Shown here piece by piece: positions 14,496-51,473 of a stretch of 64,000 bases of DNA (position 1 is its first letter; the number at the start of each line of letters is the position of its first letter). The stretch lies in the IMG/VR virus record IMGVR_UViG_3300025010_000010. The stretch is one strand, 5' to 3'. The translations under genes and the position numbers were made by a program. Source of the DNA: a virus. The notes below the pieces were generated by a model that was given only the letters and a program-made list of their open reading frames with translations, did no database searches and had not been told where the DNA came from.

Positions 14496-14508
14496 TTAAG
14501 GAGGGGAT

Positions 14509-16764: not shown

Positions 16765-16828
16765 CCCCAGCTCCTTTGCCCGGCCTGTTGAGGCTCGCGA
16801 GCTTTCATTTTTATTCCCTTTGCCCGGA

Positions 16829-17481: not shown

Positions 17482-17483
17482 GA

Positions 17484-19069: not shown

Positions 19070-19647
19070 TCTCTCCCCCGCATCAGCCACGGAATAATTA
19101 CCGTAGCCAGTACAACCTGAGTTTCGTTCACCTGCTCCGGTACCCGCTTTTTGTGATATCTCAAACATGGCAGACAGGCCGGTACCGCGTTCATCGCCGC
19201 GTCAAATGCTGCTTGTGCCCCTGCGCCGTTGCTCATCTCTCGGTAAAAAGTATCCTGCCAAGCTACTGTTTGCGGCCAGCACTCGCCGCACTCCGACTCA
19301 GACATATTGCAGTAGCCAACCGATTCATCTGCCGACTCCGCAAAAGTCCCATCAGCAACCGAGCACATCCCGTCGCAGCTCGCGAAGAATCCCAGTCGGT
19401 ACCCGGTAAGCTGGTCCGGGGTGATATCCGGTCTGCTGCACAGCGGGGTGATAAGCTGCGGCCCACCATGTGCGATCTCGTAGAACTGATCGGGCGCATC
19501 CCAGAAAGCTGCGTTCATTGCCCACGGGTGCCACTCCCAGGTGCAGCCCTCGTAGGCCCCTTCGATCACGGTGCCATGAGCCTGGACAGCAAGCGTCAGG
19601 AGGAGGGCGAGAATTACGGCTATTGCCCATTTATCCCAGGTGGTCAT
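19066..19647 (-). CDS. secreted Cys-rich protein with C-terminal hydrophobic anchor
   Basis: Signal peptide WAIAVILALLLTLAVQAHG, many Cys, C-terminal VVLATVIIPWLM. Confidence 0.55.
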   Translation of the reverse strand: MTTWDKWAIAVILALLLTLAVQAHGTVIEGAYEGCTWEWHPWAMNAAFWDAPDQFYEIAHGGPQLITPLCSRPDITPDQLTGYRLGFFASCDGMCSVADGTFAESADESVGYCNMSESECGECWPQTVAWQDTFYREMSNGAGAQAAFDAAMNAVPACLPCLRYHKKRVPEQVNETQVVLATVIIPWLMRGRE

Positions 19648-19649
19648 TG

Positions 19650-20225
19650 TTAATACCCCAGCACCGTCATCATCTGAGCAGTCTTTTCGGCCTGTCCCGC
19701 TGCGCTATAATGCGTTCCATCTGTAGTCATCGTTGCCCCATCATCCCCGCCCTCAAGCCATACTCGCTCATCATCTCCCAAATGTGCTATCAACGGACGA
19801 TCAGATACAATGGTGCCTATTGCCGCCGCTATTTGATTCCACTCTGTTCCTATTCGTGCCCACGGTCGGCTCAAATAAAAATCAGCGTTTGGGCATACAG
19901 TAGCCAGTTGGTCTATAAGACTTTCATAGTCAGATACCCATACCGCAACTTCACCAGCATTGTCAAAATCAATACTCGCTTGATCGTTTACCCCAAAATT
20001 AATTAATATTTTTTTAGTATTCTCAGGATCGTCTATTTCGGCGATTTTGTCATCTATCACAGCAAGAAAACTGGCAACAGTAGCACCAGAAATCCCGATG
20101 TTAAAATGTGTCCAGCCTGTTTCTTCTTCAACGTTTACAGCAGCATCAAGATCACTCGGCCACGAATTAGGCCAGGTAGCGTCTGTTTTGCTATCCCCGG
20201 CCATAACTATATTCTCCGTGACCAC
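19650..20225 (-). CDS. SGNH/GDSL-family hydrolase (esterase or deacetylase)
   Basis: Block I MAGDSKT, block III FGVND, block V DGTHYS. Confidence 0.75.
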   Translation of the reverse strand: MVTENIVMAGDSKTDATWPNSWPSDLDAAVNVEEETGWTHFNIGISGATVASFLAVIDDKIAEIDDPENTKKILINFGVNDQASIDFDNAGEVAVWVSDYESLIDQLATVCPNADFYLSRPWARIGTEWNQIAAAIGTIVSDRPLIAHLGDDERVWLEGGDDGATMTTDGTHYSAAGQAEKTAQMMTVLGY

Positions 20226-20243
20226 GGGTATATAGCATGTATC

Positions 20244-22352: not shown

Positions 22353-22383
22353 AATTTATCAACCTCCTTTTATATTCTGCTTT

Positions 22384-22389
22384 ATTATA
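22384..22389 (-). promoter_or_regulatory. candidate -10 box (TATAAT on - strand) upstream of the fibre-like gene
   Basis: The - strand reads TTTTAGGATATAATAAAGCAGAATATAAAAGGAGGTTGATAAATTGTG. This gives TATAAT, then AAGGAGG, then the GTG start. Confidence 0.3.
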
Positions 22390-22421
22390 TCCTAAAACTC
22401 TTATATTTCTAAATTTTATTT

Positions 22422-22925
22422 TTATCTATCCGCATACAATCCATAAAACTTCAAATAAAATTTTGAACCAGAAACAGCATTGCCAGTAGTTGATATTGTC
22501 CAAATTTCAGAATATACCGGCCACAAATAGGTTGAAATACCAAGAAATGTATTTTTGCCCAATGTTTCCTGTTTCGTTGTTTCATCAATAAAATTCGTTC
22601 CATTTGCCCCAAGTAAGGAAAGTCCATCGGAATCAGTAATGATCAAATCAGTTTCATCAGTTGGAGCAGGAGAAGAAGGAATATATTTGATTTTATAAAT
22701 ATATTGTCCTGACAATTTCTGCATTGCAGATTCATCACCATTCGAGGCCAAAGGGGCAGAAAGAGAATTATCAGTATGATGAGTGCAAAGAATAGTCAGA
22801 ACTGTTCCAACTTTATTTCCCCGATAATCTTTGACAACTTCCCAATCTGTTTCTGTACAAGTTCCAGCGGCAAAAACATTCCCGTAAAACAATAATGCAA
22901 ATAATACAACAATAAACTTTTTCAT
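22422..22925 (-). CDS. secreted protein (signal peptide paralogous to that of the fibre-like gene)
   Basis: MKKFIVVLFALLFYGNVFAAG; GGAG RBS. Confidence 0.6.
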   Translation of the reverse strand: MKKFIVVLFALLFYGNVFAAGTCTETDWEVVKDYRGNKVGTVLTILCTHHTDNSLSAPLASNGDESAMQKLSGQYIYKIKYIPSSPAPTDETDLIITDSDGLSLLGANGTNFIDETTKQETLGKNTFLGISTYLWPVYSEIWTISTTGNAVSGSKFYLKFYGLYADR

Positions 22926-32799: not shown

Positions 32800-33183
32800 T
32801 TATACATCCGTCGAATAATCAATCATTCCGATACTTGCCCGTTTTCTACCAAGAGCCGCCAATCTGCCAGTAAAATCCAAAAGCAATGCATTCTGCCCAT
32901 AAGGAGTAGATTCAAGACCTTTTCCGAACTGGCCCATATATTTCACCCTTACCCCCTCATTACCGCCTGCCCATTCCTCTATTGTTCTCTGATCCCTGGA
33001 ACAAATAATATGAGCAACAATATATCGTTCAATTTCTTTTAATGTTGCATCACCAACTTGCGTATCCCCGGAAAATGCATTTGTTACCAACAAATTCCCA
33101 GCAGTAATAAATGGAGTGATATCAGTTATTGATGAATCAATATCAATTATTTCTCGAACTTCTGCGGAAGTAACCCGGCCCAT
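32800..33183 (-). CDS. head-tail connector (gp6-like) protein (by position and size)
   Basis: 127 aa, first gene of the connector series. Its start overlaps the sulfotransferase stop (TAATG). Confidence 0.5.
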   Translation of the reverse strand: MGRVTSAEVREIIDIDSSITDITPFITAGNLLVTNAFSGDTQVGDATLKEIERYIVAHIICSRDQRTIEEWAGGNEGVRVKYMGQFGKGLESTPYGQNALLLDFTGRLAALGRKRASIGMIDYSTDV

Positions 33184-33857
33184 TATTTTTTACCTCCATA
33201 TAAAGCAGGATCAACAAAGGCATTTACAAGATTCTGTTTCCATTCAAGCCCTAACCATTCAATCATTTGTTTCATCTCTAATTGATCCCCGGCAATTATT
33301 TTAGAGGGCCAAACTTCCATAATTTCAAGACCAGCCTTGTTCATTTGTCTGAATCTATCTTCATGAACTTTTACCCAATCCAACCAGCCATCTTTTGTCT
33401 TATAAGCACGCATGAAAGAAGTTCGCAAACAAGATTCAGCAATTTGATCAGCTTCACGTCTTACAATTACCCATTTAGCAGCAGGAAAGGCAAGATGCCA
33501 CATATACCAAAACAAACACATCTTCGCCCCCTTGTAATACCAAATCCCGTCCTTATATCCTTGATATTGTATTACTGATTGTATCCTTTTTCTCCATTGT
33601 TCTCCTTGCTGTTGAGTTACCTCAAAAACCTGCCGGGAATTAGGTAATGGCCTTTGCCCTAAAGGGTCACAACCAATGCTTTTCAAATATGGTTTAGTAA
33701 TTGAATTTCTTATTTCAAGATTTTCAAACATCCCCTTTTGATTATGAATATTCGGGCCTGCCGTATCCCCGCCAAATCCACCACAAATATGAATAATCCC
33801 AGCGGTCATACTTGTTCCAGAACGGGCAGCGCCGGTTATAAGGATAGGATCAATCAT
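33183..33857 (-). CDS. sulfotransferase-family protein
   Basis: PAPS 5'-PSB-like ILITGAARSGTS and 3'-PB-like WVIVRREADQIAES. Start trimmed to the ATGA overlap at 33854-33857. Confidence 0.6.
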   Translation of the reverse strand: MIDPILITGAARSGTSMTAGIIHICGGFGGDTAGPNIHNQKGMFENLEIRNSITKPYLKSIGCDPLGQRPLPNSRQVFEVTQQQGEQWRKRIQSVIQYQGYKDGIWYYKGAKMCLFWYMWHLAFPAAKWVIVRREADQIAESCLRTSFMRAYKTKDGWLDWVKVHEDRFRQMNKAGLEIMEVWPSKIIAGDQLEMKQMIEWLGLEWKQNLVNAFVDPALYGGKK

Positions 33858-36229
33858 ACCCAAATCTCCTTGACCCATTGATGTTTGCAAGTATGTGGCC
33901 GCTCTCTCCCGTGGAAACAAACAATATCAAACTCATTTGGCTTATTACTCGTACTTGAGCAATGCCTTTTGTATGATGCTATTCTTGAAAAACGGCCAAT
34001 TGATTCAATTTTAACTCCTCGTTTTTCAAGTGTCTTTGAAATATAAACCTGATCCCACCCCTCATAATTTTTACGATCAAATTTATCAATTAAATATCTA
34101 AAATCCCCATGCCAAGCCATTATCCCAGATGCCCACATCCCCTTTTCCCTCCTGGAAGAATTAAAAGGAGGAAGCATCCAAAATTGACCATTATCCATCC
34201 TTGATACAGAATTTACAAGTTTATCAATATTATGTAAAATTACTGTATCAAGATCAATATAAAGTACCGGACCATAAAGAGAAAATAATTCAAGTTTGGA
34301 CCACCAACCCGGAAAATTCTTTTTAAGTATAATTAATTCAATATCCTTAACATTCATATCAGTTAAAACACAAAACTTATAAGGAATTGTTACAGTCTTT
34401 TCAATCATTCGTTTCATAATCTGGACGTATTTTTCGTCATAATCCCCACCAGATTTGAGGACACAAGCAATTGTCAAACAAGGAGAACGTTTTAATTCAA
34501 CAGATTTAATAACCTTTTCATTTTTCTTTGTTTGAACTTCCCTCTTTCCTGTTGGCAAAGGAAGTTTGGAAGGTTTTGCAATCCCTTCGATTATTCCTAT
34601 TGATTTAGTTGTTAATGAATTAACATTAATCCCATTTGTATTTTCGGTAAAATATGTTTTATTCCAAACTTCCGGTTGAACACAATTCCAGGCAAAATCC
34701 CTATTATAATAATCGTTCCATATTGTAAGGGTTTTAATCCCCATCGAAGCAGAAAGAATTGTCAACCCGGAAGGATAACCAACAACCAATTCTGAACCTT
34801 TCAATAATCCAAACAATTGCTGAACAGTCGTCTTCCCTACAAGATCAATTGAGTCAGGAAAATTCTTTTTTATTTCATTCAATGGATTATCATCACCATC
34901 CCATATTGCTCCGGTAAATACTGCTTTCAATCCTGTCCGATTCAATACCTTCCTGATATACCCAATAATATTCTTAATTGGGAATTGCTGCGTCCAATAA
35001 CTATAAGTCCCACCAAAAATAAAATAAAAAACAATATATTTCCCAAATTGTTCTTGACACATCTTCTGAAAATTAAGTTGTTCAAGAGAAACAAACATTT
35101 TCGGATTCCAGGAACATTTCAAATCAGGATCAATCTCATTCATACTTTTGCCAATTCGTAAATGGCCATTATATGAAACGAAATAATTACAATTTAAAAC
35201 ATCTCTGAAAATTGTCCTTCCTTCTTGAGCATACGCTTCTTTCCAGATTTTTTTATTACTTTCCCCATCTGTAGAAAGAGAGAACCCGGAAGAATGAACA
35301 AAAGGAAACATTTCAATAAAAGGAAATGCCCTCTTGTGTCCGTTGTATTTTTTCTCTTTATTACAAGCAACTGCTATTTCAGGAATTCCAATATTTTCCC
35401 TTTCAATCAATGCCGGTAATTTAATCAAGGACCAATATGAGTCCCCAATCCCAGGAGGGAGCAAAATTGTTTTTCTATCTTCTTCTGGTTTGGCACAAGT
35501 AAATAATATTTTTGATTCAATTGGATTTTTTATTCCACTGATTATAAATCCTGTTTTTGCAAGCAATTCTTTTAATTGATCTGTATTAAAATACCAAATA
35601 TGTTCAATCTTCCAATGATGTTTTCCAGCCTCAACATGAAAATTGGGAAAATCAATAATACATTTTCCACCCTGTTTGGTAATTCTGAACATTTCCTTTA
35701 TAAAAGAAACCGGGTCAAGACAATGCTCTAATACATCATGGCACGTTACAACATCAAAATGATCAGTTGGGAATGCAATATCCTCCAACATCCCATTATA
35801 AATAAAATTCCCAGTAGGGGCATAGGCATATTGGGAAATCTCACAACCATAAGCCGCCGCACCCCTGGACCGGCATTCATCTACAAACGCCCCGGAACCG
35901 GAACCAACATCAAGCAAAATAAGTTCACAACCTCCATAAATTCCGTAATCATTTGCCCGTAATTTAGCAATTCTCAAGTCATGATCATAATCTTTTGCCT
36001 TATATTGTTCATTTACCGGCTGATATTCCTGATAATATTTCTTATATTCTGTTTTAACAAAAGGAAGAGTTGTCTGTCGAATAACCCCACAATCAAGACA
36101 TTCGGCCAATTTTATTCTTGATCCATTTTTAGCAATTACAGTTTCCCCTTCTGGGGTCACTTCATAATATTGTGATTCCCGCTCTGTGAAACGGTCACTA
36201 TTACAAATACATTTGGTTAATGCATTCAT
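33854..36229 (-). CDS. multidomain methyltransferase-glycosyltransferase fusion (Cys ribbon + class I SAM MTase + GT-B-like + GT-A-like)
   Basis: LLDVGSGSGAF with FDVVTCHDVLEH (SAM MTase). A middle segment PPGIGDSYWSLIKLPAL (heptosyltransferase-like, tentative). C-terminal LYIDLDTVIL (DxD). Confidence 0.65.
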   Translation of the reverse strand: MNALTKCICNSDRFTERESQYYEVTPEGETVIAKNGSRIKLAECLDCGVIRQTTLPFVKTEYKKYYQEYQPVNEQYKAKDYDHDLRIAKLRANDYGIYGGCELILLDVGSGSGAFVDECRSRGAAAYGCEISQYAYAPTGNFIYNGMLEDIAFPTDHFDVVTCHDVLEHCLDPVSFIKEMFRITKQGGKCIIDFPNFHVEAGKHHWKIEHIWYFNTDQLKELLAKTGFIISGIKNPIESKILFTCAKPEEDRKTILLPPGIGDSYWSLIKLPALIERENIGIPEIAVACNKEKKYNGHKRAFPFIEMFPFVHSSGFSLSTDGESNKKIWKEAYAQEGRTIFRDVLNCNYFVSYNGHLRIGKSMNEIDPDLKCSWNPKMFVSLEQLNFQKMCQEQFGKYIVFYFIFGGTYSYWTQQFPIKNIIGYIRKVLNRTGLKAVFTGAIWDGDDNPLNEIKKNFPDSIDLVGKTTVQQLFGLLKGSELVVGYPSGLTILSASMGIKTLTIWNDYYNRDFAWNCVQPEVWNKTYFTENTNGINVNSLTTKSIGIIEGIAKPSKLPLPTGKREVQTKKNEKVIKSVELKRSPCLTIACVLKSGGDYDEKYVQIMKRMIEKTVTIPYKFCVLTDMNVKDIELIILKKNFPGWWSKLELFSLYGPVLYIDLDTVILHNIDKLVNSVSRMDNGQFWMLPPFNSSRREKGMWASGIMAWHGDFRYLIDKFDRKNYEGWDQVYISKTLEKRGVKIESIGRFSRIASYKRHCSSTSNKPNEFDIVCFHGRERPHTCKHQWVKEIWV

Positions 36230-36877
36230 TTAATAATTGCTCCGGGTAATTGTAATCTCATTTATGTTTAATGATTTATAATTTTGACATAAATCAAAAA
36301 TAACTCTTGCAACTTCTTTCGGGTCAATAAGTTTATCCCAGTCAGGACGATGCTTTGTCATATCGGTTTTCATTGCCCCGGAATAAACATTCAAAATTTT
36401 TATATTGTATTTTGTGGCTTCAAATTTCAAAGAATCGAAGAACCCTTTTAAGGCGTGTTTACTGGCTGCGTATGCCATTTCTCCCTTTCCGGCTACTACC
36501 CCAGCCAGAGAGTTTAAATTAACGATACAGCCCCCATTCCGCCTGCGGAATAGCGGGAATAATTTCATAGTCAGAAGGACTGTTGCGAAAAAATTTACAT
36601 CCATTACTTTTTTAAGTTCTGCTTGATTAAATTCCCCATTAGCATAAATCCCGGCACAATTAATCAATATATCAATCCCATCAACCAATTCTGCTTCATG
36701 ACATAATGTATTGATTGTTGCGGGATGAGTTAAATCCCCGCTTACCACAACACCTTCTTCATGCAATTCATAAATGTCATTACGATTACTCATTATCAAA
36801 TAATTCCCATGGCCAGAAAATACATTAACAAGTTCTTTTCCAAGTCCCCGAGATGCACCTGTAATCATAACTTTCAT
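36230..36877 (-). CDS. short-chain dehydrogenase/reductase (SDR)
   Basis: ITGASRGLGKEL (TGxxxGxG), NSLAG, YAASKHAL (YxxxK). Confidence 0.85.
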   Translation of the reverse strand: MKVMITGASRGLGKELVNVFSGHGNYLIMSNRNDIYELHEEGVVVSGDLTHPATINTLCHEAELVDGIDILINCAGIYANGEFNQAELKKVMDVNFFATVLLTMKLFPLFRRRNGGCIVNLNSLAGVVAGKGEMAYAASKHALKGFFDSLKFEATKYNIKILNVYSGAMKTDMTKHRPDWDKLIDPKEVARVIFDLCQNYKSLNINEITITRSNY

Positions 36878-37356
36878 ATGAATGGCAGCCTCTCATTCTT
36901 CAAGCAAATTACCGCTGGAACTCCCATCAAATAAGCATCAAGCATTGCCTTTTCGGTCTCAAATTGATTTCTCGGAAAGAAACCATGAACATTTTTCAAC
37001 AAACCAATAAGCCCCTCGGGATTCAATGCCCTATGGGTCGGCCCATGCGTAGGATAGTCAGAATTGCCAACCAGTATTACTGGCAAATTCTGCTCATCAA
37101 TATCAATCTTTAATTGTTCAAATGGCCTTTCAATCAGGAACGGAGTCAAGGAATAAACAATTGGCCTCAATCCTTCACAAGCCATTCCAGCAGCTACAGA
37201 AAGGAGGGACTGTTCACAAATCCCCATGTTGTAAATCCGATCAGGAAACCGTCTCTGAAATTCATCCATTTCCTGAAATACATCACCGTGAAGAACGACA
37301 ATTCGTTTATCCTTCTCCCCAAGCCTTACAATAGTTTTACCGAACGCCCTTCTCAT
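36874..37356 (-). CDS. transketolase-like C-terminal subunit, truncated (Pyr domain only)
   Basis: FGKTIV.LGEKD..IVVL.GDV, NMGICEQSLLSVAAGMA, PTHGPTH. At 160 aa it is far shorter than the roughly 300 aa I recall for typical subunits. Confidence 0.65.
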   Translation of the reverse strand: MRRAFGKTIVRLGEKDKRIVVLHGDVFQEMDEFQRRFPDRIYNMGICEQSLLSVAAGMACEGLRPIVYSLTPFLIERPFEQLKIDIDEQNLPVILVGNSDYPTHGPTHRALNPEGLIGLLKNVHGFFPRNQFETEKAMLDAYLMGVPAVICLKNERLPFI

Positions 37357-37359
37357 ATA

Positions 37360-38136
37360 TCACCAAATAAAATTCTCTCTTGTATAGCCAAAAGAAGTCA
37401 TAAATGGAAAAATAATTGATGCCATATTCTGTAAATACTTAACACTTGCTTGTTTTTGTCCCAACAAATTCATTATCCCGTCAATATCCTTATTCTCATA
37501 CATTTCTTTAAATTTATTATTCGGTGTTATATTTTGTGGAATCCATTCTTCAGCATATTTATTGACAATACTTTCATCAAAATTATCAATTTCACAATGA
37601 TTTAATACCTTCAATAATAAATCTTTTCGTTGCTCAAATGAATAATTCAAATCAATAGGTAAAAACATAATATTCGGATGTTGAACAAATTCCGTAGCCA
37701 ATGCAACAAAATTATCAATAATATAAAAATGTCTGAATTGAGGATGCCTTACTTCTCTTGTCAATATTGCGGCCAATGGATCGCGCACCGGAATAACTGT
37801 TTTAAAAAAATTACAGAACAATAAAATTGTCGAAATCGGAAGACTTCTCATTGTCTCAAGATTACTTTTCCAACCATTATAAAATTGTTCATCCATTAAA
37901 TCAAGACCACTATCCTGCTGGACTATCGGTAAATGAATATGAGCAATTGTTTTTTTATCAAGAGGGCAATCATACTTGTATTGATAATTAATATGTTCTG
38001 CATCGTATTTCTTCCTATCTTCAAGCAACAAAGTAAGTTCTTTTTCTTGTTCAAAGAAATTCAAAAGAAAATTTATCACAAACCAAGTTCCGGTATGCTG
38101 AACAGATGGAACAAATATAATATCGTTCAATTTCAA
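37360..38136 (-). CDS. second sulfotransferase-like protein (tentative)
   Basis: VPSVQHTGTWF (5'-PSB-like) and IPVRDPLAAILT (3'-PB-like RDP motif). It separates the two transketolase subunit genes. Confidence 0.4.
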   Translation of the reverse strand: MKLNDIIFVPSVQHTGTWFVINFLLNFFEQEKELTLLLEDRKKYDAEHINYQYKYDCPLDKKTIAHIHLPIVQQDSGLDLMDEQFYNGWKSNLETMRSLPISTILLFCNFFKTVIPVRDPLAAILTREVRHPQFRHFYIIDNFVALATEFVQHPNIMFLPIDLNYSFEQRKDLLLKVLNHCEIDNFDESIVNKYAEEWIPQNITPNNKFKEMYENKDIDGIMNLLGQKQASVKYLQNMASIIFPFMTSFGYTRENFIW

Positions 38137-38855
38137 TTCAATTCCTCGAAAGCTAAATCCATAAATTCTTTATTAGGCCAATTGGCATGCCATTTAGGAT
38201 CATTTTCCATATAGGAAACACCTTTGCCCTTTGTCGTTTGGGCAATTATAAATTTAGTTGTTTTACAAGGTTCTTCAATTATCTTTCTCAATTGATCAAC
38301 ATTATGTCCATCAACAATCCAAGTATCAAAACCAAGAGCATTTGTTACTTCATACAAATTAAATGATAAAATATCTTGATTCCAGCCTGAACCTTGAATT
38401 CTATTTTCATCAACAATTACAATTAAATTATCAAGATTATGTTTTTTGGCAATTAACATTGATTCCCAAGTCGTACCCTCCTGGGCCTCGCCATCACCCA
38501 TCAAAACATAAACATTCCCTGATTCACCTTTCATCTTTTTGGCAAATGCCATTCCAACAGCAGCAGGAAAACCATGGCCCAATGATCCTGTTGTATAATT
38601 TATGCCATTTGCTACATCTCTTTCAGGATGTCCAGATAATTTCGGATTCAACCCATGTTCCTGAAGAATCACATAGAGCGGCCAACAAGCATGGCCCTTG
38701 CTCAATACAAACTTGTCATCTTCTTTAAGACAAAAATCATAAAGAGCAATTAAAATTTCAACAATTGAAAAACAACCACCATAATGATACCCACCGTTTG
38801 CAGTAGAAAGTTTTAATGTATCACGGCGAAGTTGTTTTGACCTTTCATTCAACAT
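38133..38855 (-). CDS. transketolase-like N-terminal (ThDP-binding) subunit
   Basis: SKGHACWPLY, GSLGHGFPAAVGMA, ThDP motif GDGEAQEG...LIVIVDEN. Confidence 0.85.
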   Translation of the reverse strand: MLNERSKQLRRDTLKLSTANGGYHYGGCFSIVEILIALYDFCLKEDDKFVLSKGHACWPLYVILQEHGLNPKLSGHPERDVANGINYTTGSLGHGFPAAVGMAFAKKMKGESGNVYVLMGDGEAQEGTTWESMLIAKKHNLDNLIVIVDENRIQGSGWNQDILSFNLYEVTNALGFDTWIVDGHNVDQLRKIIEEPCKTTKFIIAQTTKGKGVSYMENDPKWHANWPNKEFMDLAFEELN

Positions 38856-39595
38856 ATAAACCCCACATCAGGACGGTCATTCTTGTTAGGATAATCAAGC
38901 CCTTGGACACTCCCTTGATATTCAGCCGGTACAAAATTGTCCACCAAATTTTTATGGACAAATGTACATTCCAACAGCGGAGGAACCAGATATCCATTCA
39001 TTTCCCGCATTCCAAGTGAATTATTGGGATGGATATGGACAAGATGAAAACTATCCTTCAATTTTCTCAATATATCAAGATAAGCAGAAAACAATTCCTC
39101 ATTAAACTTTTCAAAAACACCAGAATAAAAACTATTGAAATATTTAGTCAATCCTTCTCTTGGTTCACAATGAACAAGATGAAATTCAATCACAATTTGA
39201 GAAGCACTATATAATTCAAGTGGGGCAATTTTGTTTAACGCTTCCCACTCATTATATTCAACATCAATTTTAAGCATTGGGGATTTATGGAATTTGAAAA
39301 ATTTCAACGAATTCTCAATTCCTTCTTTGACAAATACAAATCTCCCATTCTGTTTAGGTAATCCATCAATTGTCGGGTCAAACAAAAATGCCTTCTGAAT
39401 ATTAAGAAATCTATTCAATAAATCAAGTTCGAACTCAACATCATCCCCGATCCCATAGGAATATAATGCATCTGATTGTTCACAGATTTCTTTCAAAACA
39501 ACATAGCCACCATCATGATCAGGACCAACCCTAATCTTGGTCAATCCTATGTCAACCAGTTGTAATTCTTTCAGAAATTTGCCAACATTATTCAT
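38849..39595 (-). CDS. putative methyltransferase (FkbM/Methyltransf_21-22-like, tentative)
   Basis: VGPDHDGGYVV...YSYGIGDD pattern. Start trimmed to an ATGA overlap. Confidence 0.35.
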   Translation of the reverse strand: MNNVGKFLKELQLVDIGLTKIRVGPDHDGGYVVLKEICEQSDALYSYGIGDDVEFELDLLNRFLNIQKAFLFDPTIDGLPKQNGRFVFVKEGIENSLKFFKFHKSPMLKIDVEYNEWEALNKIAPLELYSASQIVIEFHLVHCEPREGLTKYFNSFYSGVFEKFNEELFSAYLDILRKLKDSFHLVHIHPNNSLGMREMNGYLVPPLLECTFVHKNLVDNFVPAEYQGSVQGLDYPNKNDRPDVGFIC

Positions 39596-40626
39596 TGATT
39601 CATCTCCAGAATACAACGACAAACTTTTCCTGATTTAACCATTTCAATTGCCTTGTTTACTTCACTCAATGGAAATCTCCTGGTAATCAAGTCCTCAAGA
39701 TTTATTTTCCCATTCAAATAAAGTGCGGCATATCGAGGAATATCAACAGTTGGATTGGTCAGCCCTCCTTGACTATCAATTATTGTTTTCCCGGTATACA
39801 TATTTCTTGCATTGGAAATCTTATAATCAACCCCAATCTTAGGTTGACCAACAAGAATTAATTTCTTCGATAAATGTAATCCCATATCAATAATTTCAGG
39901 GACTCCGGTACAATCGACAAATACATCTACACCCTTTCCACTTGTAGATTTGTTTATTTCGTCAATAATAAACTCTTGATCAATACTGGAATTAATCAAA
40001 TGAGTTGCACCAAATCTCATTGCCATTTCAAGTTTGCTATCATGAATATCAATACCAAATATTTTATCAGCACAAACAAGTTTTGCCCCTTGAATCACAT
40101 TAAGGCCAACACCACCACAACCAGCAACAGCAATGGATTGTCCAATCTTTAATTGTGCTTCATTATTTATTAAACCAAATCCTGTTGTAACCGCACATCC
40201 AAGTAAGGCCGAAATCTCAAAAGGAAGAGCAGAAGGCACCTTTGTTAAACGATTCTCTGAAACAACGGCCATTTCATTAAATGTTGTTACCCAACCGCCA
40301 CCAACAGTTTCTGCCCCAAGTTTATATTTTGGCGGTATTGCATTAATCCCTTCTCCTTTTCGCCAATGCAAACAAACATGATCCCCATTTTTTACAGTTG
40401 TTACTCCAGGACCAACTTTCTCTACAATACCACCGCCTTCATGCCCGAGAAGATGGGGAAGATATTTATCTGGCCCTTTTGCCCCAGATATTTCCCCAAT
40501 CTGAGCGCCACAAATACCAGAAGCAAATACCCTTACAAGTACCTGTCCAACATCAAGAATATTCGGAAGAGATATATTCGCAACAACCAAATTCTGATTC
40601 AGTTCTGTAAGTATTGCAGCTTTCAA
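39592..40626 (-). CDS. zinc-dependent medium-chain alcohol/sugar dehydrogenase
   Basis: GHEGGGIVEKVGPGV and the GCGGVGL NAD fold. Likely TTG start at 40626 (TTGA overlap with the upstream stop), giving MKAAIL... Confidence 0.8.
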   Translation of the reverse strand: MKAAILTELNQNLVVANISLPNILDVGQVLVRVFASGICGAQIGEISGAKGPDKYLPHLLGHEGGGIVEKVGPGVTTVKNGDHVCLHWRKGEGINAIPPKYKLGAETVGGGWVTTFNEMAVVSENRLTKVPSALPFEISALLGCAVTTGFGLINNEAQLKIGQSIAVAGCGGVGLNVIQGAKLVCADKIFGIDIHDSKLEMAMRFGATHLINSSIDQEFIIDEINKSTSGKGVDVFVDCTGVPEIIDMGLHLSKKLILVGQPKIGVDYKISNARNMYTGKTIIDSQGGLTNPTVDIPRYAALYLNGKINLEDLITRRFPLSEVNKAIEMVKSGKVCRCILEMNQ

Positions 40627-41252
40627 ATTAATTTCTCCAGCTTCATAAATGGAAAATCCTTTATTGCACTGTCCGGTGTTGCGTTGATGATTTCCAACCC
40701 AACTTCTGCCGCATCCCTTGCAATATACGGCCAACAGCGCATATGATTTTTATACGGGTCAAATGTCTTCGCTCTGGTCGGATAAAAATCATGAAAATTA
40801 TGTCGATCATTATCAGGATGCATATCAAACCCAAGTAAAACAATCCGCCGAGCACCAAACCAATAGGCAATATTAATAGCACTGGCACCAGAGTTGCCAT
40901 TCCAAGAAACAAATCCAACTTTCTTTGTTTCAATGCCATAATTTTTCGATCTTCCAACACGACGAATCCCCCTCCATCCTTTTCCAAGTTCTGGAACCCG
41001 CCCACAGCTAGTCACCTTAATTCCGGGCCACTGGTCGATACTTGGGGCAAGCTCCCTGAACTGACAATCCCCAAAGTAAGTTACGTCCACCCAAGGGTAA
41101 ACTCTGAATGCTTGATTTACTCCAATTACTCGTTTCAATCTTAAGCAATTCAGTTCCATACCCTTCAAAGATGGCCCGCCACCGATAATAAATATGGTAC
41201 TCTCCGACCATAGCTTTGGTATTACCCAGGGAGTTCTTTGACAGGCCGGCAT
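40623..41252 (-). CDS. DUF115/Maf-like putative (CMP-)sugar transferase (tentative)
   Basis: IFIIGGGPSLKG....LKRVIGVNQA pattern recalls the MAF_flag10/MptE-like fold. Confidence 0.4.
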   Translation of the reverse strand: MPACQRTPWVIPKLWSESTIFIIGGGPSLKGMELNCLRLKRVIGVNQAFRVYPWVDVTYFGDCQFRELAPSIDQWPGIKVTSCGRVPELGKGWRGIRRVGRSKNYGIETKKVGFVSWNGNSGASAINIAYWFGARRIVLLGFDMHPDNDRHNFHDFYPTRAKTFDPYKNHMRCWPYIARDAAEVGLEIINATPDSAIKDFPFMKLEKLI

Positions 41253-41791
41253 TACTCATTCAGCCCTCGCAATGCTTCCCTCAAATCATCGTCTGTTTCC
41301 CAATCATCATTCCATTCAACCCCGGCTTTCTCCAGTTCCTTCACCAGATCATCCCAGCCAAGTTCATTAATATTGATTGGTTTAACTTCACCTTGAGTCA
41401 ATTCAATCAAAAGTTTTTCTGCATCCTTCTTCCTGAGTGCCTTGGCATTTACCGGCTTATCAGGATTCAAGGAGTTGATTATATCGTAAAAAGCGGTTGT
41501 TCCACGTCTTACCATTTCAAGTTGGGCAACCGGCTTATTTTCTTCCTGAATAATTTCCTGTTCAATCTTTTGCTCTTCTGCATCTACCGGACCATTTGAA
41601 GTCAATGCATCAAACTGTTTCAGCCCATCAATTCCCAACTCAGAAGGATAACAATAAACAGTATTGCCGGGACGAAGGACAGCACGGCCCTGTACCGGCT
41701 GTCCATTCACCTTCGTCCCTTCCTGAAAATTACGAACCACATGCATTCCAGTATTTTTCTTTTTACGAAATGTTTGCCTTTCCATTTTCAA
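41252..41791 (-). CDS. hypothetical protein
   Basis: 179 aa with an acidic C-terminus, immediately downstream of the capsid gene. Confidence 0.55.
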   Translation of the reverse strand: MKMERQTFRKKKNTGMHVVRNFQEGTKVNGQPVQGRAVLRPGNTVYCYPSELGIDGLKQFDALTSNGPVDAEEQKIEQEIIQEENKPVAQLEMVRRGTTAFYDIINSLNPDKPVNAKALRKKDAEKLLIELTQGEVKPININELGWDDLVKELEKAGVEWNDDWETDDDLREALRGLNE

Positions 41792-41827: not shown

Positions 41828-42910
41828 TTAAGCCGAAAGAACAGTAATACCACAATTGCCATTCTGATCAGCCCGGATCTGCGGAACCATAATGGCCATT
41901 ACCTTATAGTTGGTCGCAAAACCACCGCCCTCATCCCACTCAACAGTCGTAATTGCCATACCTTCAACAATCCGAACCGTTTCAGGACGCATTTCAGCAA
42001 GTACAACCTTGTTTGCGGTACACTTATCTGCAACCTTGATATCCTGAATACCGCCAATCTTCATGATACGCTCCCTGATCGTAGTCCCAGGAGTAGACGT
42101 ATCATAATCATTGTCTAGTACGGTTTCATAACCAGTCGGAACATACAATTCCCAAGGGCCTTGATGGAGGGCATCAATGCTGGCCTGTTTCATGGACAGG
42201 ACATCATCCAGAATTTCCGCACCAGTCTTGCCAGATGCATCCCAGTTCTGACTCAATGTTACACTGTTCTTGTTGGGATGATCCAGATACCCATACAGAG
42301 TCCCACCACCATAAGCATAAGACGATGCACCCTGAAAAAGGATGGTTTCAATCTTTTCTGCAACCTGGCGAGCAGCCAAAATACCAGTGGTCACATCAAT
42401 CGGCTGGCCAGTGGTCCGAGAAGCTGCCAGAACCCGAACATTAAAAGAAAAATCCTTATGAACAATGGGCAGAGGCAAATACTTCAGCTCATAATTCGGA
42501 CGATCCTTGGTGCTCCGGGTAATCGCGTCCATGGTCATTTCAGCAGCGGAAAGCTGATCAATGTCCTCATATTCCAAAACCGTTTTACCAAGACCATTAC
42601 CAATCCGGTAAACCAGATTCTTAGAATACAAGGATGCTACACCAACAAGCCGATCTTCGGCAGCCTGAACAAGAGCAGTATCAAGTTCGATCCACTCTTT
42701 CGTACGAAGGGTTGCATTCAGGTAAGGAGCAGGAACCGCAACAGCCTTGCCATTATACATCTTCGTTACATAAGCCCTGCCGTCCTTCCCCATATAGGGC
42801 TTCAAGCAATTGGGGTCCATTCCATTTGCAAGCAGTCGTTTACCTACGCTGCCACCAAGAATCATGGGCATTCCCTGCCCAGGGGTGATAATTTCAACAT
42901 TTGCTCCCAT
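41828..42910 (-). CDS. major capsid protein (DUF2184-like family, tentative)
   Basis: Start at the ATG at 42910, 8 nt after AAGGAG. ~360 aa, with strong expression signals, following the DUF2190-like and scaffold-like genes. Confidence 0.75.
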   Translation of the reverse strand: MGANVEIITPGQGMPMILGGSVGKRLLANGMDPNCLKPYMGKDGRAYVTKMYNGKAVAVPAPYLNATLRTKEWIELDTALVQAAEDRLVGVASLYSKNLVYRIGNGLGKTVLEYEDIDQLSAAEMTMDAITRSTKDRPNYELKYLPLPIVHKDFSFNVRVLAASRTTGQPIDVTTGILAARQVAEKIETILFQGASSYAYGGGTLYGYLDHPNKNSVTLSQNWDASGKTGAEILDDVLSMKQASIDALHQGPWELYVPTGYETVLDNDYDTSTPGTTIRERIMKIGGIQDIKVADKCTANKVVLAEMRPETVRIVEGMAITTVEWDEGGGFATNYKVMAIMVPQIRADQNGNCGITVLSA

Positions 42911-45925: not shown

Positions 45926-47390
45926 TTTCCCCAGAAGTCGCAGGAACAGCTAATTTGCCACCTTCCTGACCTATAAGATCGTCATCCCCTTCCCCGTCAT
46001 CCTGAATCAAGGTTTCATTCTGCTTTTGCCTTGCATCCATAATCCTTTTTACTTTCTCGGAATCCAAATCAAGAATTTCTTCAAGGAATGAATCAAACGG
46101 AATCAATAATTCAGTATCCGGGGCAGTTGCATAATTCTTAATTGAATCTGACCTGACCTTGCCAACATCGGCCTTATCTTTATCGGAAGGAGCAGACAAA
46201 TCAGCCCATTCAATTTCATATCCATCAGTTCCAGGAGCGGTTATTACTTGATTTTCAATAAGTTTATTGATAACCGGCTCAAGGATAAACGGATTAATAA
46301 AATAGATTCTCCGATTTTCCAATTTATCATTCCAATGCCCCTCATCCTGGGAAGAAGCCAATTCACCCCGTTCTGAGCCTTCCAGAATCCTTTTTGGGAT
46401 ACCAGTTGCAATTGAAATCATCAATAATTGTACATTAACATGATTAGAAGGATCAGCAATATCAGAGGACAATTTCTCAACTTCAATCCCCTGAAGTTTC
46501 ATATATCGCTTGAAATCATGAACATATAAATCAATTTCATCTTCCAATTCGGAAGCAGTAGCGGTTAAATCCGCATCAGCCTGAGCCTGAAAGGCAAATC
46601 CAGGGAAAGCCCCTTGCCAGAACATTTCTGCAGAACCGCCAACAATCAATTCGAGATTTAACAGGCGATTGTAAATCCTCTCCAATATCGGAAGGGCAAA
46701 TATGTTTGATTCAAGCAATCCTTCTGTTACATGTAAAACTCTTGAATGATGAACCAATAAATCATTTGTAATTTTTGCATTACTTCCCGGCTCAGTATAT
46801 GAAAGCTGGTATACTTCCGGTTTCCCATATCGCTCTGAACCAGGGTTTCTGTCCCAACTTTTTATTGTCGCATTCCCTTCCGAATAAGGCTGGAGATAAA
46901 GCAATTCGACCTTGCCAGTTACAGGTTTAGCCATATCCTCTTTTACTTTTACATCTGAGAAACCAAACAGCAAAACACCATATTGCCCAATTCTAATCAA
47001 TTTCTCCAAACGAATTATTGTTGAGTAAATATGATGCTTCTTTTCGAGTTCACTCCATTCCTTTTCAAAGATAGTTTCATTATCAACTGACTCAATTACC
47101 TCAGGCATGGACTGCCAAGCACCATCAACAGGAGCATCTATAATCCTTGCCGCTATATCTCCCCGGCGATACTTCCCGTAATAATCATCGAATGTTATTT
47201 CATTTAATTGAGGATAACCAAGGGCCTCGTACAAATCCCTTTTACCATGAAAGGACTGACCCAATTTATGAGCTAAAGAAGCCCTGGAAGTAAGCAACGA
47301 AGAGGACAAAACACGATGAATAGAAGATCGAAGCATTTTTCTTGCTTCTTCTTTTACATTTACAACTTGTTTTGGCTTTGTTCTATTCAT
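45900..47390 (-). CDS. portal protein
   Basis: 496 aa with an acidic C-terminus, positioned between the terminase (plus kdsB) and the MuF-like gene. Confidence 0.7.
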   Translation of the reverse strand: MNRTKPKQVVNVKEEARKMLRSSIHRVLSSSLLTSRASLAHKLGQSFHGKRDLYEALGYPQLNEITFDDYYGKYRRGDIAARIIDAPVDGAWQSMPEVIESVDNETIFEKEWSELEKKHHIYSTIIRLEKLIRIGQYGVLLFGFSDVKVKEDMAKPVTGKVELLYLQPYSEGNATIKSWDRNPGSERYGKPEVYQLSYTEPGSNAKITNDLLVHHSRVLHVTEGLLESNIFALPILERIYNRLLNLELIVGGSAEMFWQGAFPGFAFQAQADADLTATASELEDEIDLYVHDFKRYMKLQGIEVEKLSSDIADPSNHVNVQLLMISIATGIPKRILEGSERGELASSQDEGHWNDKLENRRIYFINPFILEPVINKLIENQVITAPGTDGYEIEWADLSAPSDKDKADVGKVRSDSIKNYATAPDTELLIPFDSFLEEILDLDSEKVKRIMDARQKQNETLIQDDGEGDDDLIGQEGGKLAVPATSGENEGEGTGE

Positions 47391-48118
47391 CTGTTCAACC
47401 TTTTTAAGTCAGCGGGACAATTTATATCGGGGCCACAATCATTATTAACAACTACACATTGAACATTTATCCCATTCTCCAACCATCTTAATTGTTCCAA
47501 CCTTTCATATTGCTCAAGTTTAGTTGGCTTTAATTTAGATACCTTTTGCAATATCTCGTTTCTATATGCATAAATCCCAATATGTTTATGCCAAATCGGA
47601 AATAGATCAACCGGATAAGGAGACGAATCAGGAATTGGTCTACGAGAAAAATACAATGCCTTATTATTTAAATCAAAAACAGCCTTAACCGTATTGGAGT
47701 CAAGGAAATCTCTCTGCTGTCCTACTCCTTGAGCGATTACCGGAGATGCTATATCAATATCCTTATTATCGACTAAACATTGAATAAGTTGTTCACAAAC
47801 TTTTGGATCAACAAAAGGAAGATCACCTTGAACATTTAATATAATCCTATCAGAACGCATTCCATTTGCTATTTCCGCAACTCTATCTGTTCCTGATTGA
47901 TGATTCTCGGAAGTAAATATTGCAATTCCGCCAGCATCCGTAACTGTTTTAATAATTAAATCACTATCAGTTGCAACAACAACGCCATCAATTCCTTGAA
48001 TTTCCCTAGCCCGCTTATAAACATGAAGAACCATTGGCCAGCCAGCAATAAGGGCAAGTGGTTTACCAGGGAACCTTGTCGACGCAAATCGAGCTGGAAT
48101 TACCGCTATTGCATTCAT
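47387..48118 (-). CDS. kdsB: 3-deoxy-manno-octulosonate cytidylyltransferase (CMP-Kdo synthetase)
   Basis: Near full-length resemblance to KdsB: AVIPARFASTRFPGKPL, HQSGTDRVAE, NVQGDLPF, ALYFSR, HIGIYAYR, LEQLRWLENG. Confidence 0.9.
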   Translation of the reverse strand: MNAIAVIPARFASTRFPGKPLALIAGWPMVLHVYKRAREIQGIDGVVVATDSDLIIKTVTDAGGIAIFTSENHQSGTDRVAEIANGMRSDRIILNVQGDLPFVDPKVCEQLIQCLVDNKDIDIASPVIAQGVGQQRDFLDSNTVKAVFDLNNKALYFSRRPIPDSSPYPVDLFPIWHKHIGIYAYRNEILQKVSKLKPTKLEQYERLEQLRWLENGINVQCVVVNNDCGPDINCPADLKRLNR

Positions 48119-50808: not shown

Positions 50809-50994
50809 ATGACCAAACAATCTAATATCCTGGTAGTGCAGTGCTCATACTGCACCACTTTTATCCGGGTAATCGATTCCAAAGGAACCCAGGGTGGTCT
50901 TTCTCACGGGATTTGTGAAAAATGCTTTGAAAAATTAATGGAGGATTTTGAGCAATGCAAAGAACTCATTTCAAAGGAAAGGGACAAAAAATGA
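50809..50994 (+). CDS. small zinc-binding protein
   Basis: CSYC...HGICEKC. Confidence 0.5.
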   Translation: MTKQSNILVVQCSYCTTFIRVIDSKGTQGGLSHGICEKCFEKLMEDFEQCKELISKERDKK

Positions 50995-51473
50995 ATATCT
51001 TGGTCACAAAGCATATCAATCAGGCTCATTCTTTAGCTTGGTCCTTTTGCCGAACAACTGGGATTGATTTTGAGGAATTGAAATCTGAAGCCCTTTTGGC
51101 CCTTTGTATTGCTGTTGATAATTATAATCCTTCCAGGGGAAAATTATCAACCTGCGTCCACCATTATGTTACCAGGGCATTATGTGATTTCGTTAAAGAT
51201 CAAAAGGAAAATGTTTGTGATGAATATGAAGATATTGCTAAGAATATCAACACTGAAAATACAGCTGTTTTTCGGCATCTATTAAGCAATTTAGGGGAAG
51301 AGGCCAAAATGGTTGCGAATATTATCTTTTCTGGTCCTGCGGAAATTATGGGGATTGCTGCCGATACCTCCTATTATTCAATCAAGGGAAAAATCAAGGA
51401 ATTTTTAGTTGGTAAGGGAATTAAGAAATGCAGGATTGATGAGGCTTTTGAGGAATTAAGAAATTTATTTTAA
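50991..51473 (+). CDS. sigma-70-family (ECF-sized) sigma factor-like protein
   Basis: The region-2-like segment is DFEELKSEALLALCIAVDNYNPSRGKLSTCVHHYVTRAL. There is also a C-terminal HTH-like region. ATGA overlap at the start. Confidence 0.55.
   Translation: MNILVTKHINQAHSLAWSFCRTTGIDFEELKSEALLALCIAVDNYNPSRGKLSTCVHHYVTRALCDFVKDQKENVCDEYEDIAKNINTENTAVFRHLLSNLGEEAKMVANIIFSGPAEIMGIAADTSYYSIKGKIKEFLVGKGIKKCRIDEAFEELRNLF

Follow-up and report, generated by a model that had tools for sequence, protein, structure and literature searches.

A 64,000-nucleotide (nt) stretch of viral DNA, IMG/VR record IMGVR_UViG_3300025010_000010 (hereafter the window, always at its full length), carries nine minus-strand open reading frames (ORFs) at positions 33183–41252 that code for predicted sugar-tailoring enzymes, glycosyltransferases (GTs) and sulfotransferases, and that are wedged between the gene for the major capsid protein and those for the head–tail adaptors. 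A large clade of uncultured siphoviruses carries, within the operon for head morphogenesis, a variable island for glycan synthesis, of which this block is one allele. The enzymes of the island are soluble, its genes are translationally coupled into the late operon, its position at the capsid gene is fixed, and a variable cargo is framed by conserved anchors. A preliminary description of the window had recognized the nine co-directional genes between the capsid and connector genes, as the ORF layout bears out, but had presented them as a one-off system; instead, they are one version of an island with two anchors, whose core has homologues in the phages P1 and D3. The motifs quoted in that description are all present in the translations and are given with the genes below, which are listed in their order along the minus strand:

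47387–48118, minus strand: KdsB, the cytidine monophosphate–3-deoxy-D-manno-octulosonate (CMP-Kdo) synthetase, 243 amino acids (aa), between the large terminase subunit (TerL) and portal genes (NCBIfam TIGR00466 and NF003952).
41828–42910, minus strand: major capsid protein of the HK97 fold, the upstream boundary of the island (phrog_771 and phrog_264; Linocin_M18 and DUF6260 on the source contig).
41252–41785, minus strand: ORF179, a fast-evolving 177-aa slot protein between the capsid gene and the Maf-like gene (no Pfam or PHROG match).
40623–41252, minus strand: DUF115/Maf-CstII-like protein, 209 aa, the conserved first anchor of the island and a putative priming CMP-sugar transferase (phrog_4603, PF01973 family; IIGGGPSL).
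39592–40626, minus strand: Zn-dependent medium-chain alcohol dehydrogenase (ADH), 344 aa, with a TTG start overlapping the stop of the Maf-like gene (ADH_N, ADH_zinc_N; phrog_2640, E 2.5e-78; GHEGGG).
38849–39595, minus strand: ORF257, an FkbM-type methyltransferase-like protein, 248 aa (family matches to methyltransferase models).
38133–38855, minus strand: transketolase-like thiamine diphosphate-binding N subunit (TK_N), 240 aa (Transketolase_N, E 2.1e-25; NCBIfam transketolase models, E 1e-51; GDG...N).
37360–38136, minus strand: ORF258, a divergent sulfotransferase-fold protein, 258 aa, between the two transketolase subunit genes (AlphaFold model and Foldseek; VQHTGTW and VRDP).
36874–37356, minus strand: transketolase Pyr subunit, consisting of the Pyr domain only, 160 aa (Transket_pyr, E 2.4e-18).
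36230–36877, minus strand: short-chain dehydrogenase/reductase (SDR), 215 aa (adh_short, E 4.1e-39; phrog_3142; TGASRGLG and YAASK).
33854–36229, minus strand: fusion protein, 791 aa, with Cys pairs, a class I S-adenosylmethionine (SAM) methyltransferase, a GT9-like GT-B segment and a GT-A domain with a DxD motif (Methyltransf_23/11, Glyco_transf_9, phrog_1962; LLDVGSGSGAF).
33183–33857, minus strand: ST1, a Sulfotransfer_3-family sulfotransferase, 224 aa, the conserved last anchor of the island, coupled by TAATG to an adaptor-like gene (Pfam, 28.3 bits; ITGAARSGTS and VIVRR).
32800–33183, minus strand: first gene of the head–tail connector series, 127 aa, the downstream boundary of the island (phrog_37884).

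The window represents most of a phage genome of 66–68 kb, recovered in separate assemblies of several metagenome samples (ENA ERZ28564079 scaffold_227 and others); since several independent assemblies carry the block, an assembly chimera is ruled out. The late genes form a single minus-strand block from ~50.1 kb down to 22 kb, which runs from the small terminase subunit (TerS) through TerL, KdsB, the portal, a MuF-like minor head protein, a phrog_760 protein, a decoration protein and the major capsid protein to ORF179 and the nine genes of the block, and then through two small adaptor-like genes, an HK97 gp10-like gene, the tail terminator, the tail tube, the chaperones, the tape measure and the distal tail genes. 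The plus-strand arms are given over to replication and code for a Pol III alpha subunit, a clamp loader, RecA, a 5′–3′ exonuclease, a primase, a DnaB-like helicase and a sigma factor. A Sigma70_r2 protein (50955–51473) opens a plus-strand arm divergently from the late operon and may control late transcription.

The nine genes are chained with overlaps or gaps of 0–7 nt, as read directly from the junctions: stop and start codons interlock as TAATG at 41252 and 33183, as TTGA at 40623 and 38133 (with a TTG start at 38133), and as ATGA at 39592, 36874 and 33854; ORF257 and the TK_N gene share the 7-nt overlap ATGTTGA (38849–38855), the SDR gene is followed by the fusion gene with a 0-nt gap, and 3 nt separate ORF258 from the gene for the Pyr subunit. 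The preliminary description had correctly read the junctions at 33183, 33854, 36874, 39592 and 40623, but had given ATGA for the one at 38133 and a uniform spacing of 1–4-nt overlaps. These coupled starts give products shorter than the longest ORFs for the ADH (344 aa), ORF257 (248 aa) and ST1 (224 aa), in agreement with independent gene calls on the source contigs. From TerS through the tail chaperones the intergenic gaps are all no more than ~46 nt. The operon also includes kdsB, as had been proposed: it lies in the same strand block, is joined by ATGA overlaps to both TerL and the portal, and its product is above the NCBIfam equivalog cutoffs (193.5 bits versus 155.2 for TIGR00466 and 253 versus 193 for NF003952). 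A kdsB gene is found at the equivalent position in four related loci (L033, L034, L036 and L038 of our survey). Scans of 31–50.9 kb for consensus promoters (63 versus 59±7.5 expected by chance) and terminators (21 versus 16.7±4.8) were at chance level and uninformative on transcription units, and tRNA and Rfam scans of the window returned no match.

This phage is distant from those in culture: the phage collection contains no cultured member of its clade, a megablast search with the block found nothing among 50,697 phage records, its TerL is at most 47% identical to that of any of the 50,697 deposited phage genomes, and its closest cultured capsid relative, the Brevundimonas phage MaInes, shares 32% identity. 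Relatives were therefore sought in IMG/VR, which we seeded with the ORF258 and Maf-like families, mapping the proteins of the window onto the retrieved loci. The Maf-like family has 439 viral relatives there, and 86 loci keep the same order: the capsid gene, a small slot ORF, the Maf-like gene, a variable stretch, usually an ST1 homologue, the adaptor-like gene, and the connector and tail genes. The gap between the capsid and Maf-like genes that holds the slot ORF measures 121–1058 nt in these 86 loci, and in the 75 of them that retain both flanks the Maf-like gene and the adaptor are 60 nt to 13.6 kb apart. Since this sample had been selected by the Maf-like gene itself, a second, independent search was seeded with the capsid protein, which has at least 572 relatives in IMG/VR. 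From the best 80, which were kept, 60 had enough downstream sequence, and in 59 of these 60 the Maf-like gene lies no more than 1.5 kb from the capsid gene. Synteny with related phages places the island at a fixed position between the capsid and adaptor genes. Moreover, the identity of the Maf-like protein tracks that of the capsid protein (Spearman rho 0.65, n=137) no less tightly than that of the decoration protein does (0.58), and ST1 gives 0.51. At the other end of the island, 0–100 nt separate the ST1 gene from the adaptor-like gene downstream of it in most loci, and the connector gene at 32800–33183 is kept beside ST1 across loci, with the HK97 gp10-like, tail terminator and tail tube genes coming next. 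MaInes, the distant cultured capsid relative, is without the island, which hence marks a clade rather than all phages with a capsid of this type. Some 60–63 kb phage contigs of the clade (including JAAEPN010001622.1) have been deposited in metagenome-assembled genomes (MAGs) labelled Gammaproteobacteria and Heimdallarchaeaceae; these placements are probably binning artefacts and unfit for host assignment.

What lies between the anchors differs from one phage to the next. We clustered 471 island ORFs from the 75 loci with both flanks and found that most islands have a stand-alone homologue (~210–230 aa) of the GT-A domain of the fusion protein, and often two. Other recurrent cargo comprises hexapeptide acetyltransferases and GT2 enzymes (21 loci each), along with DxD GTs, GT9-like transferases, small methyltransferases, radical SAM/SPASM proteins, GT1 enzymes, PfkB kinases and DUF268 proteins. 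The cassette seen in the window, namely ADH, ORF257, TK_N, an optional ORF258, the transketolase Pyr subunit, SDR and the fusion protein, occurs in 14 loci. At the opposite extreme are minimal loci with the Maf-like gene alone or with the Maf-like gene and ST1; such loci are consistent with an enzyme that primes a conserved acceptor. No polytopic membrane proteins were found among the 471 cargo ORFs, just three of which have two or three hydrophobic segments, and no hydrophobic segments were found in the island proteins of the window, a count from which the fragments for the GT9-like and GT-A parts of the fusion protein are excluded because they had been cut out of frame. Thus, the island is devoid of the flippases, polymerases and acyltransferases that characterize surface-polysaccharide or seroconversion cassettes.

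Base composition and near-identical genomes bear on how the cargo may be exchanged. The anchors resemble the structural genes (42.2% and 39.8% guanine plus cytosine, GC) in composition, with 43.7% GC for the Maf-like gene and 39.1% for ST1, whereas the cargo genes are below these flanks at 29.6–37.9%, the lowest being ORF258 (29.6%) and the exception being the small gene for the transketolase Pyr subunit (42.4%). Locus L002 differs from the window only in the parts of the fusion gene coding for the GT9-like and GT-A domains (within 33854–35512), where the nucleotide identity is 95–96%, and is elsewhere 100% identical to it; locus L003 is a mosaic, with 100% identity across the stretch from the SDR gene through ORF179 and 82–94% on either side. 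These patterns point to recent recombination, the breakpoints falling within the fusion gene and by the capsid gene (41828–42910). The accompanying differences between the capsid proteins of near-identical contigs were considered as a hot spot in the acceptor, but are scattered and conservative, and this idea was dropped.

The first anchor is a compact, probable member of the DUF115 family. It matches phrog_4603, annotated as alpha-2,3-sialyltransferase, with E 3.5e-31; the PF01973 model is matched by 36 of 36 members of its family (best E 7e-7), and many of the 220 homologues that we collected carry a precomputed PF01973 match. The family profile aligns over ~155 residues with the sialyltransferase CstII, including the GxGPS, N, S and GxD motifs, though weakly (E 0.07), and PDB sequence searches with the protein and the family profile yielded nothing significant. 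Its AlphaFold (AF2) model has a predicted local distance difference test score (pLDDT) of 95.8; the highest TM-score in a Foldseek search of PDB is to CstII (0.46, probability 0.80), with ST8SiaIII at probability 0.82. The phage protein corresponds to the core domain only, without the multidomain architecture of the ~600-aa Maf proteins. The DUF115/Maf-like assignment of the preliminary description finds support as to family, through phrog_4603 and through the PF01973/DUF115 matches of its relatives, whereas the analogy to Maf is structurally ambiguous, a pyrophosphokinase of the MptE type matching about as well as the sialyltransferases. We regard a CMP-sugar transferase activity as likely but unproven. 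As to its donor, KdsB is the sole cytidylyltransferase in a search of the contig for genes of pseudaminic (Pse), legionaminic (Leg) or sialic acid synthesis (PseF scoring 31 bits against a cutoff of 206), and a NeuB/PseI-type synthase was not seen in the contig annotation.

The last anchor, ST1, scores 28.3 bits against Sulfotransfer_3 (cutoff 27), and 19 of 20 members of its family match that model (best E 7.5e-10). In its 5′-phosphosulfate-binding (5′-PSB) loop GAARSGTS the residues R12, S13, G14 and S16 are invariant; in the 3′-phosphate-binding (3′-PB) motif R134 is invariant and S142 is conserved in at least 90% of the family. The motif region aligns with the motifs of the protein-tyrosine sulfotransferases (TPSTs), and these enzymes and SgdX2 are the sole matches of the family profile in PDB, with non-significant E-values of 0.2–0.8. 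In at least nine loci the island includes a gene for a protein like adenosine-5′-phosphosulfate (APS) kinase (PF01583, 57.9 bits), which in seven of them is directly upstream of the ST1 homologue; the window itself has no such gene. These seven APS-kinase-like genes are short (~120 aa; e.g., L010, 15346–15708). We interpret this adjacency as a phage-encoded boost to the supply of 3′-phosphoadenosine-5′-phosphosulfate (PAPS), and it provides strong contextual support for PAPS-dependent sulfation.

The preliminary description had counted two sulfotransferase-like proteins in the block, and the second, ORF258, earns the name through its fold, as ST1 does through the Pfam cutoff. Pfam, PHROG, NCBIfam and PDB sequence searches returned no match for it. 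Its family of 76 metagenomic proteins has an invariant TGT (in the QHTGTW motif), H68 and R118-D119-P120, and its AF2 model (pLDDT 89.7) retrieves PAPS sulfotransferases as all of the top 50 Foldseek matches in PDB, with probabilities of 0.93–1.00 at TM-scores of only 0.37–0.46. An hhalign comparison of the ST1 and ORF258 families detected no relationship, which excludes that they are recent duplicates. ORF258 is present in only some of the loci with the cassette and at varying positions in them; hence, its insertion between the transketolase subunits is secondary.

The remaining enzymes were for the most part readily assigned with profile hidden Markov models, which support the SDR, Transketolase_N, Transket_pyr and Zn-ADH identifications of the preliminary description and its dissection of the fusion protein. 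In the latter, N-terminal Cys pairs (read off the translation) precede the methyltransferase domain (aa 105–228), the GT9-like segment (~aa 250–550) and a GT-A domain with a DxD motif resembling PmgQ of phage P1 (aa 585–790). Searches with the full-length fusion and with in-frame fragments gave a phrog_1962 GT match for the GT-A domain (E 3.7e-25) and a weak glycogenin/GT8-like match around the DxD motif; the Glyco_transf_9 match is marginal (24.3 bits, cutoff 22), covers just profile positions 131–210 of 247, and is accompanied by 18.8 bits against a cutoff of 185 for the heptosyltransferase I model TIGR02193. PDB sequence searches with the GT9-like segment and the GT-A domain found nothing significant. 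ORF257, which had been called methyltransferase-like, itself matches weakly and is without a PDB sequence match, while its family falls in with FkbM-type models: six of nine members match Methyltransf_22 (best E 1.6e-7) and five of nine Methyltransf_21.

The transketolase is unusually compact. The GDG...N motif of TK_N (GDGE...N) is invariant in the family alignment, and the Pyr subunit contains the sequence GICEQ with the cofactor-activating Glu of the Pyr domain. The latter subunit is without a Transketolase_C domain and measures 158–224 aa (mostly ~160) in the 14 phage loci versus 308 aa in bacterial homologues. The closest compact pair outside the clade, at 55% identity, is a 246-aa protein with a 165-aa Pyr-only subunit on a MAG contig labelled “Woesearchaeota” (L114, 9720–10954), which shows that a Pyr-only second subunit is not restricted to phages; its neighbors code for two B12-radical SAM enzymes, a nucleoside diphosphate (NDP)-sugar epimerase, a methyltransferase and a GT2. 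Homologues of TK_N in bacteria and archaea are 36–44% identical, and none of the bacterial ones has the rest of the block alongside. Four bacterial loci have TK_N and a full-length TK_C and, no more than ~2.4 kb further on, a Zn-ADH with 45–56% identity to that of the phage, and in a Bryobacteraceae genome this transketolase/ADH cassette lies amid NDP-sugar epimerases, an HldE-like kinase/nucleotidyltransferase, a kinase, methyltransferases and a GT2. The location of these homologues in sugar-nucleotide and polysaccharide clusters indicates that the cassette belongs to sugar tailoring; a two-carbon-branched sugar, suggested in the preliminary description, would be one hypothetical product. A host O-antigen locus as the source of the block was rejected: no bacterial genome holds it, bacterial TK_N proteins are at most 44% identical, and polytopic membrane proteins are lacking, so that it is not a routine O-antigen cassette carried over unchanged from a host.

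Among deposited phages, Maf-like homologues are present in 67. In the D3-like phages (Detrevirus) that we examined, including the Pseudomonas phage D3, the homologue is orf7 (L112, NC_002484, 5951–6409), placed exactly between the major head protein and the head–tail adaptor. Between the head-closure and gp10-like genes of D3 lies a methyltransferase gene, orf13; orf12 of D3 was tested as a PmgQ-like GT and is not one. In phage P1 (L113, NC_005856, 79592–82150) PmgO is the Maf-like homologue, and PmgQ, encoded three genes downstream, is homologous to the GT-A domain (27% identity, E 3e-15). The genes pmgO and pmgQ have been labelled as of “putative morphogenetic function” and are dispensable in CRISPRi and deletion screens (PMC10695390). 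Literature searches on DUF115 in phages, sialyltransferases by capsid genes, phage sulfotransferases with capsid glycosylation, and the function of pmgO and pmgQ found no description of the island, in line with the earlier remark that the combination was not recognizable as a described phage system.

Both the enzymology and the place in the late operon uphold the earlier view of a late-expressed sugar-building pathway. We consider it an even call that this is a late cytoplasmic pathway in which an acceptor, likely a protein of the virion head, is primed with a CMP-activated sugar that is then elaborated and sulfated. Under this proposal, late in infection the DUF115-like enzyme would transfer in the cytoplasm a CMP-activated ulosonic acid, with CMP-Kdo from the phage KdsB or from the host as the donor, onto a conserved acceptor, most likely a head protein from the same operon. 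The GT-A and GT9-like domains would then lengthen the glycan; the Zn-ADH, the compact transketolase pair, the SDR and the FkbM-like methyltransferase might prepare or remodel a non-standard sugar; and the class I methyltransferase and the two sulfotransferases would cap the glycan, drawing on host or phage-boosted PAPS. The outcome would be a methylated, sulfated and acidic glycan coat of the virion, differing in structure between related phages. We infer that the universally conserved DUF115-like enzyme contacts the conserved acceptor and the variable enzymes elaborate its product. The timing of expression, the cytoplasmic enzymes, the co-inheritance of the Maf-like and capsid genes and the position of the D3 homologue make virion proteins the most economical acceptor, and the context is also favorable, in that the cargo codes nearly throughout for glycan enzymes, and classical cell-surface polysaccharide machinery is absent from the 471 ORFs. 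In its boldest form, which we advance with considerable reserve, the locus would be a clade-wide virion serotype locus, minimal in P1 and D3, in which DUF115-like enzymes attach Kdo or a related acid sugar to a head protein as the primer and rapidly exchanging transferases build a strain-specific sulfated coat.

Several observations weigh against modification of the virion. The acceptor search found no signature: the capsid C-termini are conserved (…VPQIRADQNGNCGITVLSA) and not Ser/Thr-rich, and neither is the slot ORF (~110–180 aa in most relatives; ORF179 here). The Maf-like protein of the window scores 22.6 bits (E 1e-4) against PF01973, under the gathering cutoff of 34.6, and its best Foldseek E-value in PDB (1.7e-3) is to the archaeal MptE-type pyrophosphokinase HPPK (8sd5), the sialyltransferases having TM-scores of 0.41–0.46 at probabilities of ~0.8. 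The loop Q-H-T-G-T-W of ORF258 has His at the position of the Lys or Arg in the PSB loop of sulfotransferases, and only some of the related phages have KdsB. The synteny with structural genes is no more than suggestive, as morons also gather at such junctions. Finally, Kdo and a GT9-like domain are ingredients of the inner core of lipopolysaccharide (LPS). Since soluble or peripheral enzymes build this core on the cytoplasmic side of the membrane, an LPS target is compatible with the lack of membrane proteins in the island.

The last points bear on the alternative that survives best, though we think it unlikely, namely that the enzymes remodel glycans of the host envelope, such as the Kdo/heptose inner core of LPS or capsule precursors at the cytoplasmic face, rather than the virion. 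KdsB and a segment of the heptosyltransferase family (GT9) represent hallmark activities of LPS inner-core synthesis, the variability of the island could mirror the diversity of host glycans, and the phage might benefit from reduced trapping of progeny on debris, from blocking superinfection or from an altered lysing cell. Indeed, phage genes of LPS and cell-wall metabolism are usually read in this way (PMC12801897). The coupling of the genes into the head operon speaks against it, as enzymes made minutes before lysis would have little time to bring new LPS to the surface, and so do the absence of flippases, polymerases and Gtr-type or acyltransferase-3 membrane proteins from the 471 cargo ORFs, the co-evolution of the Maf-like gene with the capsid gene beside which it is fixed in 59 of 60 loci, the lack of any bacterial genome with the block, and the marginal GT9 match (24.3 bits).

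Two further readings appear improbable to a similar degree. One is that the head/neck junction is merely a recombination hot spot that gathers unrelated sugar genes, without a common acceptor or a link to the virion. The low GC content of the cargo, its patchy distribution between loci, and the mosaicism with breakpoints in the fusion gene and by the capsid gene among near-identical genomes would all be accounted for in this way. However, the cargo is no random assortment of morons, nearly all of it coding for sugar-modifying enzymes and for transferases of glycosyl, methyl, acetyl or sulfo groups; translational coupling extends to every gene; the two anchors and the GT-A are conserved clade-wide and track the capsid phylogeny; and the recurrent adjacency of APS kinase and ST1 signals a functional linkage. 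The other is that the DUF115-like protein is a small-molecule enzyme, of the pyrophosphokinase type or another, or a factor in head assembly, with the island acting on some other substrate. To the HPPK match may be added Foldseek matches to thiamin pyrophosphokinases, the current naming of PF01973 after MptE in Pfam, and some loci that have the DUF115-like gene without other glycan enzymes. Against these stand the highest TM-score, which is to CstII, and the profile alignment with its four nucleotide-binding motifs; glycan enzymes always follow the gene when the island is present, and it is paired with a GT-A in P1 and with KdsB in the phage of the window.

Least probable is that the enzymes hypermodify the phage DNA with a glycan before packaging, as transferases acting on hydroxymethylated bases do. 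Virus-encoded GTs that hypermodify DNA with diverse glycans furnish a precedent (Pyle et al. 2024, as summarized where cited in PMC12619734), the enzymes of the island are cytoplasmic, and the replication module has unexplained radical SAM and pyridoxal phosphate (PLP) enzymes. Nevertheless, the Pfam and PHROG annotation of the contig has no dCMP/dUMP hydroxymethylase or thymidylate-synthase-like gene, and the genes are in the head operon, away from those for replication. Moreover, we know of no precedent for sulfotransferases or CMP-Kdo in DNA modification, and P1, which has homologues, is not known to have glycosylated DNA.

Two other regions of the window merit mention. In the replication arm (58764–63670) a PLP-dependent threonine-dehydratase-like gene (60603–61466) lies between two paralogous phrog_13321 genes (61435–62871, with a weak Radical_SAM match, and 59576–60631) among other neighbors without a match, and a further radical-SAM-like protein is encoded at 2547–3407; these genes may constitute a nucleotide or DNA modification pathway. 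The distal tail region is covered by an 8-kb patch (14500–22500) with 43–58% GC in a genome that is otherwise ~33–40% GC. It codes for a 702-aa protein (20244–22352), an SGNH/GDSL lipase-like protein (19650–20225) and several ORFs without a match, and includes ~1.2 kb (~14.8–16.3 kb) without a gene call in the source-contig annotation and a 30-nt tandem repeat (16565–16652). This patch may be a recently acquired host-range module.

To return to modification of the virion, phage-encoded glycosylation of virions has to our knowledge been shown so far only in a few actinobacteriophages, and we know of no protein-linked Kdo and no sulfated glycans on a bacteriophage, so that each would be a first. 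The locus suggests a different and more elaborate glycosylation system (acidic, methylated and sulfated) that is widespread in environmental phages of probably Gram-negative hosts, and its organization resembles a bacterial serotype locus, with conserved anchors around a variable cargo, fixed beside the capsid gene. If this proposal were correct, the particles would bear a diversifying glycocalyx comparable to the O-antigens or flagellin glycans of bacteria, and this would affect their stability, their adsorption to non-host surfaces and mucus, and their recognition by grazers, immune systems and host defences. It would also change how “LPS/cell-wall auxiliary metabolic genes” in viromes are read and would supply a function for the long-unexplained pmgO and pmgQ of P1 and orf7 of D3, for which existing strains make the hypothesis testable. 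The compact two-subunit transketolase and the divergent ORF258 family are, in addition, of enzymological interest.

Among known systems, the island shares its Maf-like and GT-A homologues with the pmgO-pmgP-ppp-pmgQ late operon of P1 and its capsid-to-adaptor slot with orf7 of D3. The P1 and D3 versions are minimal, being without sulfotransferase, transketolase, ADH and KdsB, and the P1 pair, unlike the island, is away from the capsid gene. The O-antigen conversion cassettes of temperate phages (Gtr, Oac and Wzy types) are likewise phage-borne and variable, but consist of polytopic membrane proteins expressed from the prophage, whereas the island enzymes are soluble and chained to late structural genes. 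Capsid glycosylation in giant viruses and chloroviruses, and viral Kdo pathways, resemble the island in using virus-encoded sugar-nucleotide synthesis and transferases independent of host machinery, and DUF115-like proteins are also present in giant viruses; these are, however, viruses of eukaryotes with other capsid proteins and enzyme sets, in which we know of neither sulfotransferase anchors nor such an island architecture.

The Maf flagellin GTs and the GT42 enzyme CstII resemble the island in a PF01973/DUF115-type core, for which the protein of the window itself scores below the gathering cutoff, and in the association with a CMP-ulosonic acid synthetase, and Maf systems too feature a variable glycosylation island adjoining the gene of an abundant self-assembling structural protein. 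They differ in that the Maf proteins are ~600 aa in length with flanking domains, which the 209-aa phage protein lacks, and in that the activating enzyme of the phage is KdsB, for the 8-carbon Kdo, versus a pathway for Pse, Leg or neuraminic acid (Neu) in Maf systems.

A further parallel is provided by the mycobacteriophages Che8, Corndog and Myrna, which glycosylate their capsid and tail tube proteins by phage-encoded transferases (Freeman et al. 2023, as summarized where cited in PMC11600133 and PMC12619734). In those summaries, soluble, cytoplasmic phage GTs and an O-methyltransferase act on virion subunits, as we propose here for a putative virion acceptor, and the glycosylation is dispensable for growth and has been proposed to mask the particle surface, a further likeness to the island. 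The enzymes themselves are unlike the mycobacteriophage set, comprising DUF115, a PmgQ-like GT-A, a GT9-like segment, sulfotransferases, KdsB, the transketolase pair, ADH and SDR; the island also differs in being variable and fixed between the capsid and adaptor genes, in its probably Gram-negative host, and in a capsid protein without a Ser/Thr-rich C-terminal tail. Thus, phage-encoded glycosylation, here probably of the virion, is already known as a kind, and the new part is a clade-wide variable island in the head operon.

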